From an uncultured Methylomirabilota bacterium (GTDB lineage Bacteria > Methylomirabilota > Methylomirabilia > Methylomirabilales > 2-02-FULL-66-22), in contig OY970067.1 in the NCBI GenBank assembly GCA_963705305.1, positions 2,944,001 through 3,008,000 on the forward strand: 64,000 bases of DNA. The letters are read 5' to 3'. Numbering within the stretch: position 1 is the stretch's first letter; each line of letters starts with the position of its first letter. The notes under the pieces are model-generated. The model was not told where the DNA came from, made no database searches, and was given only the letters and a program-made list of their open reading frames with translations. Positions 33,645 through 64,000 of this stretch are shown here, piece after piece. A program made the position numbers and the translations under genes.

Positions 33645-33733
33645 GAGGTGGGGTGCTCCCCTAATCTCCGGCTAAGAAGTTGAGGGGGATCGCGAATCAC
33701 GCAGCGGCCCGCAGTGCGCGCGGCCCGCGGGGT

Positions 33734-33749
33734 TGGCATCGGCCTTGCT
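33734..33749 (+). promoter_or_regulatory. Sigma54-type -24/-12 motif upstream of the IS1380 transposase (also at 55918-55933)
   Basis: TGGCATCGGCCTTGCT = GG-N10-GC, 42 nt before the ATG. Confidence 0.5.
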
Positions 33750-33791
33750 TGGTTTCACCCAGTGGGTGCAAACACCACAAGGAGGAGAGCG

Positions 33792-35165
33792 ATGCCCGAC
33801 ACCTCGCCCCGGTTGCCGTTCGAGATCGATGACGCGATCGACCCCACGCTGGTCACGGGCCGGGCCGGGGTCCCGCTCGTGATCGAGCTGTTCCGCCAGC
33901 TCGGGGTGGCCCAGGCCGTCGACACCCACGTTGCGGTCAAGCAGCGGCAGCGCGGATTACCCCCCTCGCAGCTCGTGGAGAGTCTCGTCGCGTTGTGGAC
34001 GAGCGGCGGGGACCGCTGCCAGGACCTCACGACGCTCCGGGAGGATCAGGCCCTGGCCACGCTGCTCGGCTACCCCCTGCCGGCCGCGACCACGGTCCGG
34101 GACTTCCTCGAGGCCTTCCACGTGGAGGACGGGCCGCTCTGGGTGGCCGGGCCCGCGGCCACGGTCCCCCTGGAGTCCGCCCCCTTGGCGGGCCTCGGAC
34201 AGGCGAACCGGACGCTGGTCGCGGGCGTCCAGCGCGGGGCCCGGGCGGCGACGGCCACCCTGGATGTGGACGCGACGCTCGTCGAGAGCCACAAGGACGC
34301 GGCGACCGTGGCCTACGACGGGACCCGGGGCTACCAGCCCGTCGTGGTCCTCTGGGCCGAGCACGATGTCATCGTGCACGACCAGTTCCGCGATGGCCAG
34401 GTGCCCGCCGGGTGCGGCAACGTGCGCGTCCTCGAACAGGCGGTGGCCAACTTGCCCCAGGGCGTGGACCGCATCTCCCTGCGGGCCGACAGCGCCCTCT
34501 ACGAGACGGAGGTCCTCCGCTGGTGCGAGGAGAAGAAAATCGCCTACGCGATTAGCGCCGATATGTCCGCGCAGCTCCAGGCCGAGATCCGGCGCCTCCC
34601 CGCGGCCGCCTGGCAGCTCGAGCGGGAGGAGCCCGAGGCGATCCGGGCCTGGGCCGAAGTCCCCTACGTCCCCGAGGATGGCGATCACCGGAAGGCGCGG
34701 CCGTGCGTTCGCCGCTACCTCGCGGTGCGTATCCAGCGACGCCAGGGGAGCCTCTTCGCCGACGGGAGTAGCGTGCAGTACTTCGCCGTGGTCACCAATC
34801 GGCCGGAGGATGGGCTCACGATCCTCCGGTGGCACCGGGAGAAAGCAGGGACCATCGAGCACACCCATCACGTCCTCAAGACCGAGCTGGCGGCCGCCGC
34901 GCTGCCCAGTGGGAAGTTCGGGGCGAACGCCGCCTGGTTCCGGCTGAACGTGCTCACCTACAACCTGCTCACCGCGCTCAAGCGGTTGACCTTACCCGGA
35001 GATCTCCGGACCGCCCGGCCGAAGCGTCTCCGGTTCCTGCTGTTCAACACCGTCGGGAAGGTCGTCGCGCATGCCCGACGGACGCTCTTGCGGCTCTCGG
35101 GCGCCCTGCAGCACGCCTTGCTCGTCCGGGCGCGGCGCAAGATCGCCCGGCTGGCCACCGCTTAG
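33792..35165 (+). CDS. IS1380-family DDE transposase
   Basis: TLDVDAT, GYQP, LRADSA, IEHTHHVLK, FGANAAW..YNL; AGGAGG RBS; stop lies inside the right IR. Confidence 0.92.
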   Translation: MPDTSPRLPFEIDDAIDPTLVTGRAGVPLVIELFRQLGVAQAVDTHVAVKQRQRGLPPSQLVESLVALWTSGGDRCQDLTTLREDQALATLLGYPLPAATTVRDFLEAFHVEDGPLWVAGPAATVPLESAPLAGLGQANRTLVAGVQRGARAATATLDVDATLVESHKDAATVAYDGTRGYQPVVVLWAEHDVIVHDQFRDGQVPAGCGNVRVLEQAVANLPQGVDRISLRADSALYETEVLRWCEEKKIAYAISADMSAQLQAEIRRLPAAAWQLEREEPEAIRAWAEVPYVPEDGDHRKARPCVRRYLAVRIQRRQGSLFADGSSVQYFAVVTNRPEDGLTILRWHREKAGTIEHTHHVLKTELAAAALPSGKFGANAAWFRLNVLTYNLLTALKRLTLPGDLRTARPKRLRFLLFNTVGKVVAHARRTLLRLSGALQHALLVRARRKIARLATA

Positions 35166-35183
35166 CCGGAGATTAGGGTGCTC

Positions 35184-55842: not shown

Positions 55843-57362
55843 CCCTAATCTCCGGCTAAGAAGTTGAGGGGGATCGCGAATCACGCAGCGGCCCGCAGTG
55901 CGCGCGGCCCGCGGGGTTGGCATCGGCCTTGCTTGGTTTCACCCAGTGGGTGCAAACACCACAAGGAGGAGAGCGATGCCCGACACCTCGCCCCGGTTGC
56001 CGTTCGAGATCGATGACGCGATCGACCCCACGCTGGTCACGGGCCGGGCCGGGGTCCCGCTCGTGATCGAGCTGTTCCGCCAGCTCGGGGTGGCCCAGGC
56101 CGTCGACACCCACGTTGCGGTCAAGCAGCGGCAGCGCGGATTACCCCCCTCGCAGCTCGTGGAGAGTCTCGTCGCGTTGTGGACGAGCGGCGGGGACCGC
56201 TGCCAGGACCTCACGACGCTCCGGGAGGATCAGGCCCTGGCCACGCTGCTCGGCTACCCCCTGCCGGCCGCGACCACGGTCCGGGACTTCCTCGAGGCCT
56301 TCCACGTGGAGGACGGGCCGCTCTGGGTGGCCGGGCCCGCGGCCACGGTCCCCCTGGAGTCCGCCCCCTTGGCGGGCCTCGGACAGGCGAACCGGACGCT
56401 GGTCGCGGGCGTCCAGCGCGGGGCCCGGGCGGCGACGGCCACCCTGGATGTGGACGCGACGCTCGTCGAGAGCCACAAGGACGCGGCGACCGTGGCCTAC
56501 GACGGGACCCGGGGCTACCAGCCCGTCGTGGTCCTCTGGGCCGAGCACGATGTCATCGTGCACGACCAGTTCCGCGATGGCCAGGTGCCCGCCGGGTGCG
56601 GCAACGTGCGCGTCCTCGAACAGGCGGTGGCCAACTTGCCCCAGGGCGTGGACCGCATCTCCCTGCGGGCCGACAGCGCCCTCTACGAGACGGAGGTCCT
56701 CCGCTGGTGCGAGGAGAAGAAAATCGCCTACGCGATTAGCGCCGATATGTCCGCGCAGCTCCAGGCCGAGATCCGGCGCCTCCCCGCGGCCGCCTGGCAG
56801 CTCGAGCGGGAGGAGCCCGAGGCGATCCGGGCCTGGGCCGAAGTCCCCTACGTCCCCGAGGATGGCGATCACCGGAAGGCGCGGCCGTGCGTTCGCCGCT
56901 ACCTCGCGGTGCGTATCCAGCGACGCCAGGGGAGCCTCTTCGCCGACGGGAGTAGCGTGCAGTACTTCGCCGTGGTCACCAATCGGCCGGAGGATGGGCT
57001 CACGATCCTCCGGTGGCACCGGGAGAAAGCAGGGACCATCGAGCACACCCATCACGTCCTCAAGACCGAGCTGGCGGCCGCCGCGCTGCCCAGTGGGAAG
57101 TTCGGGGCGAACGCCGCCTGGTTCCGGCTGAACGTGCTCACCTACAACCTGCTCACCGCGCTCAAGCGGTTGACCTTACCCGGAGATCTCCGGACCGCCC
57201 GGCCGAAGCGTCTCCGGTTCCTGCTGTTCAACACCGTCGGGAAGGTCGTCGCGCATGCCCGACGGACGCTCTTGCGGCTCTCGGGCGCCCTGCAGCACGC
57301 CTTGCTCGTCCGGGCGCGGCGCAAGATCGCCCGGCTGGCCACCGCTTAGCCGGAGATTAGGG
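55843..57362 (+). mobile_element. IS1380-family element, copy 2 (1520 bp, apparently identical to copy 1)
   Basis: Same 18-bp IRs; TSD AAGCG (55838-42, 57363-67); identical ORF translations. Confidence 0.93.
55976..57349 (+). CDS. IS1380-family DDE transposase
   Basis: Same protein as 33792-35165. Confidence 0.92.
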   Translation: MPDTSPRLPFEIDDAIDPTLVTGRAGVPLVIELFRQLGVAQAVDTHVAVKQRQRGLPPSQLVESLVALWTSGGDRCQDLTTLREDQALATLLGYPLPAATTVRDFLEAFHVEDGPLWVAGPAATVPLESAPLAGLGQANRTLVAGVQRGARAATATLDVDATLVESHKDAATVAYDGTRGYQPVVVLWAEHDVIVHDQFRDGQVPAGCGNVRVLEQAVANLPQGVDRISLRADSALYETEVLRWCEEKKIAYAISADMSAQLQAEIRRLPAAAWQLEREEPEAIRAWAEVPYVPEDGDHRKARPCVRRYLAVRIQRRQGSLFADGSSVQYFAVVTNRPEDGLTILRWHREKAGTIEHTHHVLKTELAAAALPSGKFGANAAWFRLNVLTYNLLTALKRLTLPGDLRTARPKRLRFLLFNTVGKVVAHARRTLLRLSGALQHALLVRARRKIARLATA

Positions 57363-58654: not shown

Positions 58655-60128
58655 CTACGGGGCCACCGGAAGATGAACCGTGAAGGCTGTTCCCACACCC
58701 ACCTCGCTCCGCACGTCGATGGTCCCCTTGTGGTCCTCCACGATCCGGTGGGCGATGGCCATGCCGAGACCGAGCCCTTTCTCCTTGGTGGTGTAGAACG
58801 GATCGAAGATCCGCGACAGACGCTCGGGCGGGATACCCTGCCCCGTGTCGGAGATGGTCACACAGACGGCCGGCTCCGGGCGCGTGCCCGCCGGGCGGGA
58901 CACGGCGAACGTCATGGCGGGCACCGATTGCGTCGACAGCTTGAGGTCGCCCCCATTCGGCATGGCCTGCACGGCATTCGACACGAGGTTGCTGAAGCAG
59001 CGGTGGAGGCGCTTGCGATCCACCATCCCGTAGGGCAGATCGGGGTCGAATTCCCGAATGATCTTGATGCCCTGGTTCGTCGCCTGGGTTTCAAACAACT
59101 CCAGGATCTGCGAGAGGATCTCATTCAGGTTCACCGGCTCGAGCTGCACGTTCATCGGCCGTGCCAGCTCCATCATCTCTTCGATGACGGCCTGGACGCG
59201 CTCCAGCTCCCGCGGGACCACCCGGTCGAACTTCTCCCGGACGCTGGGGTCATCATGGTGCATGGACATCAGCTGAGAGAAGATCAGGATCGAGGTGAGG
59301 GGGTTCCGGATATCGTGAGCGATGCCGGCCGCCATCGTCCCCAGGGCGGCCAACCGGTCGGCTCGACGCAGGCGGTCCTCCAGCTCGCGCACGTGGGAGA
59401 GCTGGCGGCTCATCTCGTTGAAGGCGGCCGAGAGCTGGCCGAGCTCGTCGTGGGAATGCACCTCAATCTGCTGGTTGAAATCGCCGCGACCGACGGCGGC
59501 CACGCCCTGGGTGAGGGCCCGAAGAGGCTTGGTAATTCGTTCCGCCAGGACCACGGAACTTAGGCTGGAGAGAAGGACCGCCAAGAGGCCGAAGGCAACG
59601 ATCTGCCATCCGGTCCGTGTGATCTGTTTGTTCATGCCCTCCAGGGACACGCCGATGCGGACCGTTCCCCACCGTTGCGCAGAACCCTCGATCATGACCG
59701 GGACCGCCACATCGTATACGGTCTCGCTATGGGCGCCCGGGATGCTGCGCTGGCGGATCAGCGGTTTGTCCCCAGCCGCCGGCATCTCCTGGTAGTCCTG
59801 GAGAAGGTCCTTTTGGCTCAAGACATTCCGGACGCTGCTCGCGGCAACGTGCCCCTCCTTGTCCAAGACGACGGCGTATACGACGTTCAGCGCTTCTGGT
59901 AGCAACGGCTAGGCTCTGCTCCACTCCCACGTAATTGTATGTGACGAGAGAGTTAGCGCTGGCTTGGGCCAGGCCGCTGGCCAGGATAAGGGCTCGCTTT
60001 CTCACCTCCTCGACAATAGCATTCCGCTGTTCCCTTTGCGCCACGACAGCTGCGCTGCCCACGAGCAACACTACGAGCAGGTTGATGAACAAGATGAGCT
60101 TCGTTCGGATGGGGAGATGGTTGATCAT
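58655..60128 (-). CDS. Membrane sensor histidine kinase (TM-periplasmic domain-TM-HAMP-HisKA-HATPase), frameshifted near 59900
   Basis: N-part MINHLPIRTKL..TM1 in ORF 59727-60128; remainder (TM2, HAMP DELGQL..FN, AHDIRNPL, DTGQGI, GLGLG) in ORF 58655-59905. Confidence 0.88.
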
Positions 60129-60154: not shown

Positions 60155-61804
60155 CTACTTCTCCTTGTTCCGATCGAACCAGATCCGTTTCATGGGGATA
60201 TAAGGGTCTCCCAGCGCGCTCACCTCGATCCCCCTCACGTAGGGCTGGAAAATCCGCTCGTAGGAATAATAGCTCAGGACTATGAGTGGTGCCAGGTTCA
60301 TAATCTCCCGCTCTGCTTCCTGATAGAGAAGAAGCTTCCTCTGGGTGTCGCTCTCGAAACGGGCCCGCTGCAAGAGGGAGTCGACGGTGCGATTGTGGAG
60401 CTGCGTGAAATTGTCGGAGCTTCGAGAGTCGAACAGCTGTCCCAGGAACGTTTCGGGATCCGGCGTGTCAGCGTACCAACTGTACCGGAAGATCGGCAGC
60501 TTTCCCGCGTAGACCCCGGCATGGTATTCGGGCCAGTTTGTGTTGTAATGGATCTCTGCGTGAATTCCCACGGCAGCCAAGTACTTGATGATGGTCTGGT
60601 GCTCGGCCACAGCCTCGTCGTTCTTCCGCGCCGACCAAATATGAATGACCGGCAGGCCCTTTCCGCCCGGGTAGCCGGCAGCGGCCAAGAGGTCGGCTGA
60701 TTTTTTGGGATCGTAAGGATAGCCGACGAGATTTGGATCATAGCCGTAGGTGCCGGGCGGAAGAATCCCAGCAGCAGGGAGGTACTGGTCGTCATAGATC
60801 TCGTGCATGAGCCTGCGGCGGTCGATCGCGTAATTGATCGCTTGGCGAACCCGCGGATCGTCGAGGGGTTTCGTGGTGGTGTTGATCCCCAAGAAGGAGA
60901 TACCAAGAATGGGGCGACGGATGAACTGGTACCTTCGATCATTAAGCAGTTGCGTGCGCATTCGTGCTGGAATGCCTGAGTCCTCGAGATTCCCGCGCTC
61001 AAACTCTTCGAACATTTTGTCGAGGTTTTCGCCGGTGAAGATCCTGTACTCCAGCCGGTTGAGCTTCGGGGGCCCCTCGAAATAATCCCGATTGGCCGAT
61101 AGGACAATCTCCTTGTTCCGGACCCATCTGACAAACTTGAAGGGTCCTGTGCCCACGGGCTCCTGCCCAAAACGATCGCCCAAGCTTTTTACCACCTCTT
61201 GCGGGACGACCTTCGCGAAGCCGACAGCCAGCGAAGCGACGAAGGGCGACTGAGACTCTGTCAGAGTGATCCGAAGGGTTAGCGGATCGAGAGCCTCCAG
61301 GCCCTCCACACGGCTGGCGCGTCCCTCAGCGAACTCCCTGGCTCCTTTGATTTTCATGAAAAGGGTGGCGCCTGCGGATTTGGTTGCGGGATCCACGATG
61401 CGGGTGAAAGAGTATACGAAGTCCTGCGCGGTCACGTCCCGCCCGTTGTGGAATTTCACCCCCTTCTTTAGCTTGAAGGTCCACACCAATCCGTCGCGCG
61501 AGGCTGTCCATGTCTCGGCGATGGCAGGCTTTATGCCGAGAGCACCGTCGAATTGAACGAGCCCGTCGAAGAGTTGGTTGGCAATGGTACGACCGTAGAT
61601 GTCGTTGGGGCGAGCGGGATCCAGGGTTACCGGATCAGTCGCCAACGGACGACGGTAGGTGTCACCTTGGTGCTCGTCTCCGGACCGGACGAATGCCTCC
61701 CCACCCACGGCAGGGCAGGGAGGTACCCCTAAGGCGGCGACAAACGCCAACAAGAAGGCGATCTTCCAGCGCCGGAAGTCACACCACGATGATCTAGGAA
61801 CCAC
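60155..61804 (-). CDS. Family 5 (OppA/DppA-like) extracellular solute-binding protein
   Basis: DPVTLDP, LFDGLV, GVKFHNG, PVGTGPF, VRQAINYAID, signal-like N-terminus; start approximate. Confidence 0.92.
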   Translation of the reverse strand: MVPRSSWCDFRRWKIAFLLAFVAALGVPPCPAVGGEAFVRSGDEHQGDTYRRPLATDPVTLDPARPNDIYGRTIANQLFDGLVQFDGALGIKPAIAETWTASRDGLVWTFKLKKGVKFHNGRDVTAQDFVYSFTRIVDPATKSAGATLFMKIKGAREFAEGRASRVEGLEALDPLTLRITLTESQSPFVASLAVGFAKVVPQEVVKSLGDRFGQEPVGTGPFKFVRWVRNKEIVLSANRDYFEGPPKLNRLEYRIFTGENLDKMFEEFERGNLEDSGIPARMRTQLLNDRRYQFIRRPILGISFLGINTTTKPLDDPRVRQAINYAIDRRRLMHEIYDDQYLPAAGILPPGTYGYDPNLVGYPYDPKKSADLLAAAGYPGGKGLPVIHIWSARKNDEAVAEHQTIIKYLAAVGIHAEIHYNTNWPEYHAGVYAGKLPIFRYSWYADTPDPETFLGQLFDSRSSDNFTQLHNRTVDSLLQRARFESDTQRKLLLYQEAEREIMNLAPLIVLSYYSYERIFQPYVRGIEVSALGDPYIPMKRIWFDRNKEK

Positions 61805-62552
61805 CGATCATTCCCTCCCTGCAAAGCGAATACGCGACAAGCGCCAGGACATCATGCACACCTATGCGTACCGGGGCACCGATCATGCGAGCGGTGGGTG
61901 AAATGTCCGTCGTGGCCGCGGCAGGGAATCCATCGTAAGCCTGAGTCTGCGACCTTGTCACAACCTCCTCGCTACTACCGCCGTGCACCTGCGAAGCCAG
62001 CAGGGGTCATGGCGGACACTTCTTCGGACACACTCTGACAACTAATAAAAGGTTGTCAAGATAAATTCACGGGGGTTGAACGCATCTGAACTGATTACAT
62101 TGTGACAGGGAGGAAACAGGGGGGACCCAATTCCTCGCCGGCGCCTCAGTCAGATGGTGGGCGCGCGCGTCCTGCGGTTCGGAATCTCGAAGTGATGAGC
62201 GAGCCACGGATGGCGAGAAAGCCGAGCGGGAAGGGTAGACGGCAGAAACAGTAGCCGGAGTTGCTTGGCCGGCTTCATTCTTGGGGAAACCCCACTTGGT
62301 TCTTCAGGGGCACTCGCCCGCCCCCGGCGTCAAAGGGGACGACAACTCGAACCGCCGAAGGGGGGCGGAATGCAGAGCGGAGCCCTTGAAGATAAGGTGT
62401 CCGCTCAAGTCTAGCCTTTCGTCCATGGACCAGTTGGCGTCGAGGCTGTTGTAGCGTTGGCGCAAGCATCCGACCGGGAGGTCGGAGAGTTGACTGGACT
62501 GCTGGCTGGTAGGCCGCCGGAGAACGAGGTATTTTTCGTGCGCACTAAACAC

Positions 62553-62583
62553 AAAAAGGGGATGAGGCTCACGCCTCATCCCC
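62553..62583 (-). terminator. Rho-independent terminator of the small-peptide gene
   Basis: Perfect 11-bp stem GGGGATGAGGC / GCCTCATCCCC, GTGA loop, then TTTTT on the minus strand, 36 nt after the stop. Confidence 0.88.
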
Positions 62584-62619
62584 GGAAGTGTCGAGTATGC
62601 TGATGTGAACTCGGTCAGG

Positions 62620-62742
62620 CTACATGCCCCCTTCGGCAAAACCGGTGCGGCTGAACACCTGGGTATTGGACTGCACTTCCATCGCCGGAACGATCGCGAG
62701 GAGGCCGATCACCACCAGCACCAGGACGATGATCTTCTTCAT
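62620..62742 (-). CDS. 40-aa secreted peptide precursor MKKIIVLVLVVIGLLAIVPAMEVQSNTQVFSRTGFAEGGM (not in ORF track)
   Basis: AGGAG RBS 8 nt before ATG; MKK plus hydrophobic signal; own promoter and terminator. Confidence 0.85.
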   Translation of the reverse strand: MKKIIVLVLVVIGLLAIVPAMEVQSNTQVFSRTGFAEGGM

Positions 62743-62833
62743 GACGGTTTCTCCTTTTGTTCGATTTGAGATTTCCAATAAGTCCATCTTGACTCAGTTT
62801 TCGGCGTTTCGCTGTTCTCTGGGCCGGAAGTAA

Positions 62834-62849
62834 AGCAGGGCGTATGCCA
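62834..62849 (-). promoter_or_regulatory. Sigma54 -24/-12 promoter of the peptide gene
   Basis: Minus strand TGGCATACGCCCTGCT (GG-N10-GC). Confidence 0.75.
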
Positions 62850-62937
62850 TAGCAAAGCAAAAGAGGCGGGAGGTTCGGAAATTCCTGATCAATAAAGGAG
62901 TTAACCCTTTATGGAGTAGGCTAGTGCGGAATACGTG

Positions 62938-62957
62938 TTGCCTAAATTTTTAGGCAA
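62938..62957. promoter_or_regulatory. Candidate enhancer (UAS) palindrome
   Basis: Perfect TTGCCTAAA-N2-TTTAGGCAA about 90-110 nt upstream of the -24 box. Confidence 0.55.
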
Positions 62958-63082
62958 GTAATTGTGACAGGATCAAGGATGTATTGAGAAAAACGCTCTA
63001 ACATTCTTTTCTGAAAGGACTTATCGCAACCTTAGATTTTTTGTGCAATGTGCATAAGGAATTGAGCGACGGTGGGTTTGGC

Positions 63083-64000
63083 CTAAGGGGTGGGAACATG
63101 CTGGCGGGATTCGATACCGAGACGTTGGAGCTTCCAGAGCAGGGTGTTTCGATGCAAGCCGAGGACGCGGGCGGCCTCGCTTTGGTTCCACTGAACCTTC
63201 TCCAGGATGCTGAGGATGTATTGCCGCTCGAAGTGATTCCTGGCCTCGCGCAGGCTGAGCCCATTCTTCTGGGTCCGCTCGATCACGTCGTGGCCCAGAA
63301 TGGAGAGGTCCAGGGGGAGCTCTCGCAGAGAGATGGTCTCGCTCTGCGCCAGGGCCACCGCCCGCTCGATGACATTCTCCAGCTCGCGGACGTTGCCGGG
63401 CCAGTCGTATTGGTAGAGGGCCGCCGTGGCCCCGGCGGAAAAACCCCGGACGTGGCGATTGAATTCCCGGTTGTATTTGGCGATGAAGTGCTCGACCAGG
63501 AGCGGGATGTCGTCCCGGCGATGGCGCAGCGGGGGCAGGGTGATGGGGATGACATTCAACCGGTAGTACAGATCCTCCCGGAAGCTCCCCTCCTCCACGG
63601 CCTTCTTCAGGTCCCGGTTGGTGGCGGCGATGACCCGGACGTCGATCTTGATGGTCCGGGTCCCCCCCACCCGCTCGATCTCCCGCTCCTGGAGGGCGCG
63701 GAGGATCTTCGCCTGGAGGTCCAGGCGCATGGAGCCCACCTCGTCCAGGAACAGGCTCCCCCCGGTGGCGAGCTCGAACTTCCCCACCTTGGTGGCGATG
63801 GCCCCGGTGAAGGCCCCCTTCTCATGGCCGAACAGCTCCGACTCCAGGAGCTCGGAGGGGATGGCGGCGCAGTTGACGGCGACGAACAGCCGCTGGGCGC
63901 GGTGGCTCTGCTGGTGGATGGCGCGCGCCAGCACCTCTTTGCCGGTGCCGCTCTCGCCGCTGAGCAGGATCGTGGCGTTGTTGTCGGCGATACGGGAGAT
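63083..64000 (-). CDS. Sigma54-dependent NtrC-type activator (5'-truncated by window edge)
   Basis: GESGTGKE (frame open to the edge), [25 protein letters not shown], Fis [11 protein letters not shown]. Confidence 0.95.

Follow-up and report, generated by a model that had tools for sequence, protein, structure and literature searches.

An unannotated gene for a predicted exported 40-residue peptide within a conserved sigma-54 sensor cassette of Methylomirabilota

In the Rap-Phr systems of Bacillus, with PhrC (CSF) as an example, a precursor of about 40 residues carries an N-terminal export signal, and a family-5 (Opp-type) binding protein takes part in sensing. To our knowledge, peptide signalling is regarded as a Gram-positive trait and examples from diderm bacteria are rare. 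Here we describe a short open reading frame (ORF) on the minus strand of a 64,000-nucleotide stretch of the genome of an uncultured Methylomirabilota bacterium (contig OY970067.1, positions 2,944,001 to 3,008,000; this whole stretch is hereafter called the window), which the initial annotation had read as a self-contained Phr-like pro-peptide unit. The ORF is a real, unannotated gene for a 40-residue peptide, predicted to be exported, and it sits within a sensor cassette that is conserved across Methylomirabilota.

The likeness to Rap-Phr lies in the precursor of about 40 residues, the predicted N-terminal export signal and the presence of a family-5 binding protein. Unlike in Bacillus, no Rap/TPR receptor gene adjoins the peptide gene, and the upstream gene encodes an NtrC-type activator. 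The binding protein is an orphan encoded beside a histidine kinase rather than an importer, with no permease or ATPase genes in the cassette. The peptide gene has a sigma-54 promoter, its product matches no Phr family of Pfam, and its C-terminus is the least conserved part; moreover, the phylum is Methylomirabilota, generally regarded as diderm, and not Firmicutes. Assignment to the Phr family was therefore not upheld. The proposal that the last 5-7 residues are the mature signal fared no better, as these form the most variable part of the family (GGM, GGP, GGN, GGGGE, GDGGGGE, SDGGG, GGGGGW). By analogy, it is possible that the system works somewhat like Phr, in that an exported ribosomal peptide is sensed with the help of an Opp-type binding protein; the broader idea behind the initial annotation, in which a peptide is exported and then perceived extracytoplasmically, may or may not be correct.

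Several other described systems share parts of this design. In MgrB-PhoQ, CpxP-CpxA and ZraP-ZraSR, an exported or membrane small protein is induced by the system that it then modulates, with sigma-54 dependence in the case of ZraSR. The present peptide is predicted to be an exported or membrane small protein and would be switched on by the adjoining system, with feedback as a proposal; it has no sequence similarity to these proteins by Pfam and NCBIfam, and tandem copies and a binding protein are found only here. In the LuxPQ-LuxO-Qrr system of Vibrio, a binding protein and a kinase act through a sigma-54 activator that drives adjoining short, terminator-ended transcripts, sometimes in several copies. 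The present locus shares the periplasmic binding protein, the kinase, the sigma-54 activator and the adjoining short transcription units, sometimes multiple, and differs in that these units appear to be translated, as judged from codon-level selection, and in that the kinase is simple and not hybrid. In ComC/CSP-ComD and AgrD-AgrC, a precursor gene lies beside a two-component system, dedicated exporters or processing enzymes handle the product, and the kinase senses the peptide directly, with neither sigma-54 nor a binding protein. Here, too, a small precursor gene lies beside two-component genes and peptide variants accompany receptor variants; unlike in those systems, the locus has a sigma-54 promoter and a binding-protein gene, and no dedicated exporter or processing gene is present in the cassette.

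In the arsenite system AioX-AioS-AioR, the regulator AioR is sigma-54 dependent and, like the activator described here, of the NtrC type. Binding-protein-dependent kinases are an established class that includes AioX-AioS and the family-5 protein CBP with ChiS, as set out in the relevant part of PMC8050422. Both AioX-AioS-AioR and Vibrio CBP-ChiS have a periplasmic binding-protein gene beside a kinase with a Cache-like sensor, and an adjacent target promoter, as does the present locus (the same part of PMC8050422). Here, the binding-protein gene lies next to a kinase gene with sCache_3_2 and HAMP domains, without transporter genes; unlike in the two described systems, the only adjacent target, in place of a catabolic or detoxifying operon, is the peptide gene, which lies within the cassette and is often repeated in tandem.

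The peptide unit in the window consists of the following elements.

62849..62834, minus strand: sigma-54 promoter TGGCATacgccCTGCT, with -24 element TGGCAT and -12 element CTGCT
62755..62751, minus strand: Shine-Dalgarno sequence AGGAG, 8 nucleotides (nt) 5' of the ATG
62742..62620, minus strand: peptide ORF, 40 codons plus TAG (62622..62620), with product MKKIIVLVLVVIGLLAIVPAMEVQSNTQVFSRTGFAEGGM
62583..62548, minus strand: intrinsic terminator, made up of a stem-loop at 62583..62558 (11 pairs, 8 of them G-C, and a 4-nt loop) followed by the T-rich TTTTTGTGTT

The sigma-54 box, the AGGAG, the 40-codon ORF with exactly the peptide quoted, and the 11-bp terminator 36 nt downstream were all located where the initial annotation had placed them, and its claim of a genuine small coding gene with a Sec-type N-terminus and its own sigma-54 promoter, ribosome-binding site and terminator was supported. 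The peptide begins with MKK, followed by a 15-residue hydrophobic segment, Pro19 and a conserved tail of 21 residues. The terminator starts 36 nt past the peptide stop, and its perfect hairpin folds as RNA at -23.4 kcal/mol. Transcription of the unit is predicted to start near 62823. No sigma-70-type promoter was found in a scan of 62000-63300, and no Rfam family matched the peptide unit, the sole match being a sub-threshold one to gut-2 (17.4 versus 39.8 bits) at 62288-62326, outside the unit. An alternative in-frame ATG at 62787 would give a product of 55 amino acids (aa), an extension that is not kept in relatives; the MKK start and the ribosome-binding site (GGAGG type), by contrast, are conserved in them.

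The gene is single-copy in its own 5.65-Mb genome. By profile search, the peptide was also recovered from 12 of the 20 further genomes of its genus, with 74-87% identity in single-sequence searches. Among 14 orthologous coding sequences (91 pairs, 37 codons), the mean nonsynonymous distance (dN) was 0.109 against a mean synonymous distance (dS) of 0.619, giving a dN/dS of about 0.18. Third codon positions of the ORF vary, and Arg32 and Gly34 are each preserved through four different codons. Conservation of the ORF had been named as a check on the initial annotation, and orthologs under purifying selection are indeed present in relatives. Across the phylum, the peptide profile was positive in 127 of 251 Methylomirabilota genomes, distributed by family as 12/20 in f1, 89/159 in f9, 19/21 in f10, 0/15 in f4 and 0/20 in f7.

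The number of tandem peptide copies ranges from 1 to 5. In genome G005, a single promoter precedes three identical copies of the ORF at a period of 213 nt, each with its own ribosome-binding site, and one terminator follows the last copy. Elsewhere in the genus there are two copies in G013 and three in G010; among other families, the count is five in G237, four mutually different ones in G243, and two in G242. In G010 (L010 7000-8450), the first two of the three copies continue into out-of-frame tails past the glycine run, and the gene for the binding protein is fragmented in both G010 and G006 (L025); assembly errors in G-runs or decay may account for these irregularities.

The terminator hairpin, with differing loops, also occurs in G007, G020, G012, G015 and X019. 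By a crude scan criterion, a terminator-like hairpin was found past the last peptide copy in 17 of 29 loci, leaving 12 without a detectable one, so that read-through into the binding-protein and kinase genes is possible elsewhere. The description of a self-contained unit thus holds for the window and its closest relatives, but perhaps not for all of the other loci.

Within the window, 20 matches to the sigma-54 consensus with at most two mismatches were found, against 23.7 expected from shuffles. Because the consensus is not enriched, the sigma-54 box would be insignificant alone; it is convincing because it is conserved in relatives. The box was present in 11 of 11 loci of the same genus in the form TGGCA[CT]-N5-CTGCT, in which the N5 varies and the elements are fixed. 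Of 29 loci from across the phylum, 27 have the looser pattern TGG[CT]-N7-[TC]TGC in the interval from -200 to -30 relative to the first start codon, where mononucleotide shuffles gave an expectation of 0.30. It is missing in G008 and in X019, whose available upstream sequence amounts to only 19 nt.

Candidate sites for the activator lie further upstream.

62939..62956, minus strand: candidate activator palindrome TGCCTAAAAATTTAGGCA (TGC-N12-GCA), about 90-105 nt 5' of the -24 element
63036..63048, minus strand: candidate activator half-site TTGCACAAAAAAT, one of two adjacent upstream sites just past the activator stop

Alignment of the region from the activator stop to the first ATG in 11 loci revealed as conserved blocks two to three TGC-N12-GCA palindromes (consensus TGCNCAAAAAATTGNGCA), the sigma-54 box, the Shine-Dalgarno sequence and the ATG; the 5' untranslated region (UTR) was not conserved. 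The TGC..CAAAAAATTG..GCA block was aligned in the 11 loci, and the palindrome at 62939..62956 is unique in the genome. In the half-site, TGCACAA is invariant or nearly so among the 11 aligned loci, and the exact 13-mer occurs once in the 5.65-Mb genome. More distant loci carry TGCACAGT..ACTGTGCA palindromes in two to three copies, and the conserved palindromes span 90-200 nt upstream. Their adjacency to the activator gene and their co-conservation suggest that they are bound by the adjoining activator. The genome has one rpoN, recognized as the single gene with a Sigma54_DBD domain. The sigma-54 interaction domain is matched 34 times in the genome, with 28 strong matches.

No Pfam family was matched at E<=10 by two members of the peptide family, and NCBIfam returned only two chance-level matches (E 0.05-0.08), far under their cut-offs. 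A word-indexed search of 5.8 billion proteins gave 14 clusters, including the window's own, and an exhaustive profile search of 1.84 billion representatives gave 21 matches, all of them short proteins of one pattern. All 14 clusters were unnamed or called 'hypothetical protein', which bears out the description of the gene as unannotated. In the Protein Atlas, the top score of 0.85 fell to unnamed clusters, and a PapR cluster at rank 7 (0.77) was below lead level. Full-text searches of an incomplete library found no paper on this peptide family or cassette.

The family pattern opens with M-[KTA]-K and continues with 15-20 hydrophobic residues, P-x-x-E and a conserved tail of the form ..S-[ST]-Q-[VF]-F-[SQ]-[RA]-x-G-x-A-[DE]-G, after which come glycines in varying number and a last residue that also varies. 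Positions 19-37 are conserved, with P-A-M-E..S-S-T-Q-V-F-S-R-x-G-x-A-E/D-G in the middle, and only M1, K3, L15, P19 and E22 are invariant in 19 diverse members. In the hydrophobic run, I, L, V and M replace one another, and G021 lacks Gly13 and Ala16, whereas the tail is kept; free variation of the run with conservation of the tail is the pattern expected of an export signal followed by a working tail. The N-terminus is also built like the signal peptides of the binding proteins themselves (G004). We applied von Heijne's (-3,-1,+1) rule for signal peptidase I to the alignment as a rule of thumb rather than a prediction tool. It was satisfied at one common column in 27 of 29 sequences, which here lies after Ser25 and would release the 15-residue NTQVFSRTGFAEGGM; an alternative site chosen by eye, after Ala20, fits the rule in only 8 of 29. 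By this rule of thumb, cleavage after Ser25 is predicted, with mature lengths of 15-18 residues over the family. Lasso, graspetide, pilin, Flp and PqqA-like precursors were also considered and rejected, as the conserved cassette has no maturation genes and the defining motifs are absent.

The peptide gene is flanked by three genes on the same strand, with a spacer after the terminator.

63083..64000, minus strand: 3' part of the gene for an NtrC-type sigma-54 activator (response regulator); the full gene, L016:9084-10781, corresponds to 63083..64780 and extends beyond the window
61805..62547, minus strand: spacer between the terminator and the binding-protein gene, about 740 nt, compared with about 240 nt in relatives
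61804..60155, minus strand: gene for an orphan periplasmic family-5 solute-binding protein (peptide/nickel type; SBP_bac_5, 4.2e-90)
60128..58655, minus strand: gene for a sensor histidine kinase with a single Cache domain (sCache_3_2), HAMP, HisKA and HATPase

The activator has the domains Response_reg (3.5e-30), Sigma54_activat (1.2e-73), AAA_lid_14 and HTH_8 (1.2e-10, a Fis-type helix-turn-helix), and the GAFTGA loop is found in its translation. Read along the minus strand, the order is uvrC (divergent), activator, peptide, SBP_bac_5, kinase and a GHMP kinase gene (convergent). No ATP-binding cassette (ABC) permease or ATPase genes are present in the cassette. The 740-nt spacer contains no conserved ORF and no Rfam family at threshold. 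It is unique in the genome, and the terminator is the only part resembling relatives; a repeat or a decayed peptide copy was rejected as its origin.

The gene order is strictly kept. Within the genus, the order activator, peptide(s), binding protein and kinase was found in all 5 loci with a full cassette, and 8 loci that end at a contig edge are consistent with it. In other families, the order activator, peptide(s) and binding protein was found in 16 of 16 loci, with the kinase next in the 14 that reach that far. The activator gene is upstream of the peptide in every locus with that flank sequenced, the binding-protein gene always follows directly downstream of the peptide gene(s), and uvrC lies beside the activator in 9 loci of the same-genus set and in G032. 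A type A cassette (see below) was also found on the contig of L019, labelled Anaerolineales bacterium; its kinase is 99% identical to that of G020, and the contig is probably misbinned Methylomirabilota.

A binding-protein ortholog (E<=1e-120) was detected in 115 of the 251 genomes, with the same clade pattern as the peptide; both are absent from f4 (0/15 each) and f7 (0/20 each). Peptide and binding protein were found together in 107 genomes, the peptide only in 20, the binding protein only in 8 and neither in 116, a table that is to be read as a pattern and not as a statistic, since related genomes are non-independent. Among the 8 genomes with the binding protein only, G098, G102 and G105 have the peptide on direct reading of the DNA, the genes of G019, G091, G215 and G220 lie at contig ends, and G004 has a transposase fragment upstream. 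This fragment, presumably of the IS630 family from its appearance, lies at the very start of its contig and ends 20 nt before the binding-protein start (L075, G004:C174:1-600), and the peptide gene may have been displaced or lost.

Additional binding-protein copies were observed in some genomes. G013:C45:27402-28907 (L077) encodes a second paralog with 64% identity and has no peptide gene or sigma-54 box in the adjoining 2.2 kb. Two copies on separate contigs, 64-78% identical, were found in G249 (L070/L078), G170 (L069/L079), G217 (L080/L081) and G188 (L082/L083). In three of these four genomes, both copies have a peptide gene, with differing tails, and the second copy of G188 lies at a contig edge. 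These genomes may hold paralogous cassettes or be mixed bins.

The nearest solved structures of the binding protein are binders of peptides, dipeptides, oligopeptides and murein peptides, namely 8upi (5.7e-72), HbpA, DppA, OppA and MppA. In DppA of E. coli (1dpp), Asp408, which we take to hold the amino group of the ligand, has its counterpart in the Asp of WYAD, a residue that 25 of 26 family members retain. Arg355 of DppA, which presumably holds the carboxylate, aligns with the Arg of WSARK in this genome's type, and others have a basic residue one position on. As the position of Asp408 is kept, the ligand probably has a free amino terminus, and it may be a short peptide. Prediction of a complex of the binding protein with the 40-residue peptide scored 0.02 twice, which carries no verdict either way.

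Three types of peptide tail were distinguished within the genus: type A, to which the window's peptide belongs (...G[FL]A[ED]GG[MPNE], 40 aa), type B (...GMAE[GS].GG[DG]) and type C (...GMAEG(D)GGGGE). Binding-protein identity is 73-84% within type and 53-56% between A and B; for the kinase, the values are about 69-83% and 65-75%, in both cases for types defined after the identity table was seen. The split of A from B and C measures 0.79 substitutions per site in the binding-protein tree and 0.17 in the kinase tree, with end branches of similar length. The binding proteins of the order group as a single clade in a tree of 26 rows, which makes them orthologs rather than replacements. Of 510 positions, 36 carry fixed differences between A and B; outgroups could polarise 19 of these, assigning 5 to the B lineage and 14 to the A lineage, along which the peptide tail was also shortened. 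This hints that peptide and binding protein shifted as a matched pair. Activator sequences of the genus share 84-93% identity without tracking the tail types, and the activator tree rejects type A as one group (approximately unbiased test, p-AU 1e-7). The activator of G013 (L011, type A) groups with those of G005 (L009, C) and G014 (L029, B) at 92-93% identity. The conflict between the activator tree and those of the kinase and binding protein hints at recombination inside the cassette.

We propose that the peptide is the exported, sigma-54-driven output of the binding-protein/kinase/activator system and feeds back on its own sensor, a reading to which we assign a probability of about one half. 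The periplasmic binding protein, either ligand-bound or free, would modulate the Cache-domain histidine kinase, which would phosphorylate the NtrC-type activator. The activator would bind the upstream TGC-N12-GCA palindromes and open the sigma-54 promoter, yielding an abundant short mRNA of about 270 nt that carries 1 to 5 tandem ORF copies depending on the genome. The peptide would then be inserted in or passed through the inner membrane, placing its conserved tail of about 15-21 residues in the periplasm. There it would most likely act on its own sensor pair, as a ligand or competitor at the binding protein or as a modulator of the kinase, and so close a feedback loop. Action on the own sensor is suggested by the fixed placement of the gene between regulator and sensor pair, the shared phyletic pattern, the predicted periplasmic location of all three partners and the matching types of tail and binding protein. 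Regulation by the adjoining activator, export and cleavage, and the feedback step with its direction are steps that we infer from sequence.

Several points weigh against this proposal. The genome-wide search for upstream activator sites, with 12 matches at 13 of 16 positions and no clusters, is too unspecific to make the peptide promoter the activator's only target. Both DppA-type anchors of the binding protein are kept, which suits a di- or tripeptide better than a peptide of 15-21 residues. The excess divergence within the genus is essentially one branch and thus one event. Over 20 loci of the phylum, partial Mantel tests correlated peptide-tail distance as strongly with the activator (r 0.42) as with the binding protein (r 0.40), so no binding-protein-specific co-evolution beyond shared ancestry is indicated. 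The invariant Pro19 and Glu22 would be lost upon cleavage after Ser25, which is odd if they have no role. The cassette has no exporter, protease or outer-membrane component. Finally, compared with G007, the kinase gene of this genome has one extra base near 59889 (59880-59895), which breaks the reading frame into an N-terminal ORF of 133 aa (59727..60128) and an ORF of 416 aa; the G007 ortholog is intact, with 493 aa and an N-terminal membrane span. The frame shift may be a real inactivation or a long-read assembly error.

If the Phr family label is dropped, the idea of the initial annotation becomes that of a diffusible, quorum-sensing-like signal, which would be exported, cut, perhaps trimmed and accumulated, until its complex with the binding protein turns the kinase on and autoinduction follows. 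We consider this rather unlikely. The position of the gene between a regulator and a peptide-type binding protein would suit it, as would tandem copies that raise the dose (five in G237, four differing ones in G243), the match of tail and binding-protein types within the genus, a predicted mature length of 15-18 residues, which is within the range of known peptide pheromones, and the 12 of 29 loci without a detectable terminator, where the binding-protein and kinase genes may be co-induced. However, the phylum is generally regarded as diderm, and the cassette contains nothing to carry a peptide of about 1.6-2 kDa across the outer membrane, nor a processing protease or an exporter. Co-evolution specific to the binding protein is not seen across the phylum, the binding pocket retains dipeptide-type anchors, and the variable part of the peptide is a glycine run, a poor recognition element. 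In its fullest form, the cassettes would constitute a phylum-wide loop of undescribed design, in which a Sec-exported peptide of about 15-18 residues, encoded by 1-5 tandem sigma-54 genes, is read via an orphan Opp/Dpp-type binding protein, the Cache kinase and the same activator, with the within-genus variants of peptide and binding protein as 'pherotypes'; we regard this form as similarly doubtful. Conversely, the peptide might stay in the inner membrane as an uncleaved single-pass protein (N-in, C-out) and serve as an effector of the regulon without sensor feedback, for example by modulating a transporter or envelope protein, and what the binding protein detects would be a short external peptide, for instance a nutrient or a cell-wall fragment. 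The stretch from Ile4 to Met21, with 18 uncharged residues, is barely long enough to cross a membrane, the invariance of Pro19 and Glu22 at the predicted membrane edge fits a segment that is retained and not discarded, and the binding protein, with its anchors kept, resembles dipeptide and murein-peptide binders. Yet the hydrophobic segment varies while the tail is conserved, as in signal peptides, the 15-residue hydrophobic run before the Pro is short for a membrane span, and co-regulation alone would be left to explain why the gene is so strictly linked to those of the sensor. We therefore hold such an effector to be improbable, though worth keeping in mind.

The two remaining explanations carry far less weight. 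A small, exported product with a glycine-rich C-terminus, encoded in tandem and at times diversified copies, recalls a sensor-induced secreted antimicrobial of the microcin or bacteriocin kind. This is very unlikely, as the strictly conserved cassette has no immunity, exporter or modification gene, the locus behaves within the order as vertically inherited and core-like beside uvrC, and the tail is acidic and uncharged, neither cationic nor amphipathic. Still less probable is a small regulatory RNA with an incidental ORF. A short sigma-54-dependent transcript that closes with a strong terminator and lies beside the gene of its activator would have the LuxO/Qrr layout; nevertheless, conservation acts at the codon level, with a dN/dS of about 0.18 and variable third positions, the 5' UTR is not conserved, a separate ribosome-binding site is retained before every tandem copy, and the unit has no Rfam match.

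The peptide gene, while not a Phr of the Bacillus type, could represent a new kind of peptide feedback or signalling loop. If the peptide is indeed a ligand or feedback partner of its own binding protein and kinase, known parts would be wired in a new way. Even on a conservative reading, gene callers lose conserved regulatory small proteins: this family has no Pfam or NCBIfam model and is missed or left unnamed by annotation. It is fixed within a sensing cassette in roughly half of the genomes sampled from this soil and groundwater phylum, of which almost nothing has been cultured. The small size of all four components would allow the system to be rebuilt in a laboratory host, which makes the question directly testable.

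Elsewhere in the window, two identical sigma-54-like 16-mers at 33734 and 55918 are part of a 1.52-kb insertion sequence with a DDE_Tnp_1_4 transposase, present at 55843-57362 and 33659-35178. This element gave 28 BLAST alignments in the genome, 24 of which, beyond the query copy, are near-full-length at >=98% identity. In this genome alone, the 55.8-kb copy sits between the genes for GHMP kinase and proline reductase.

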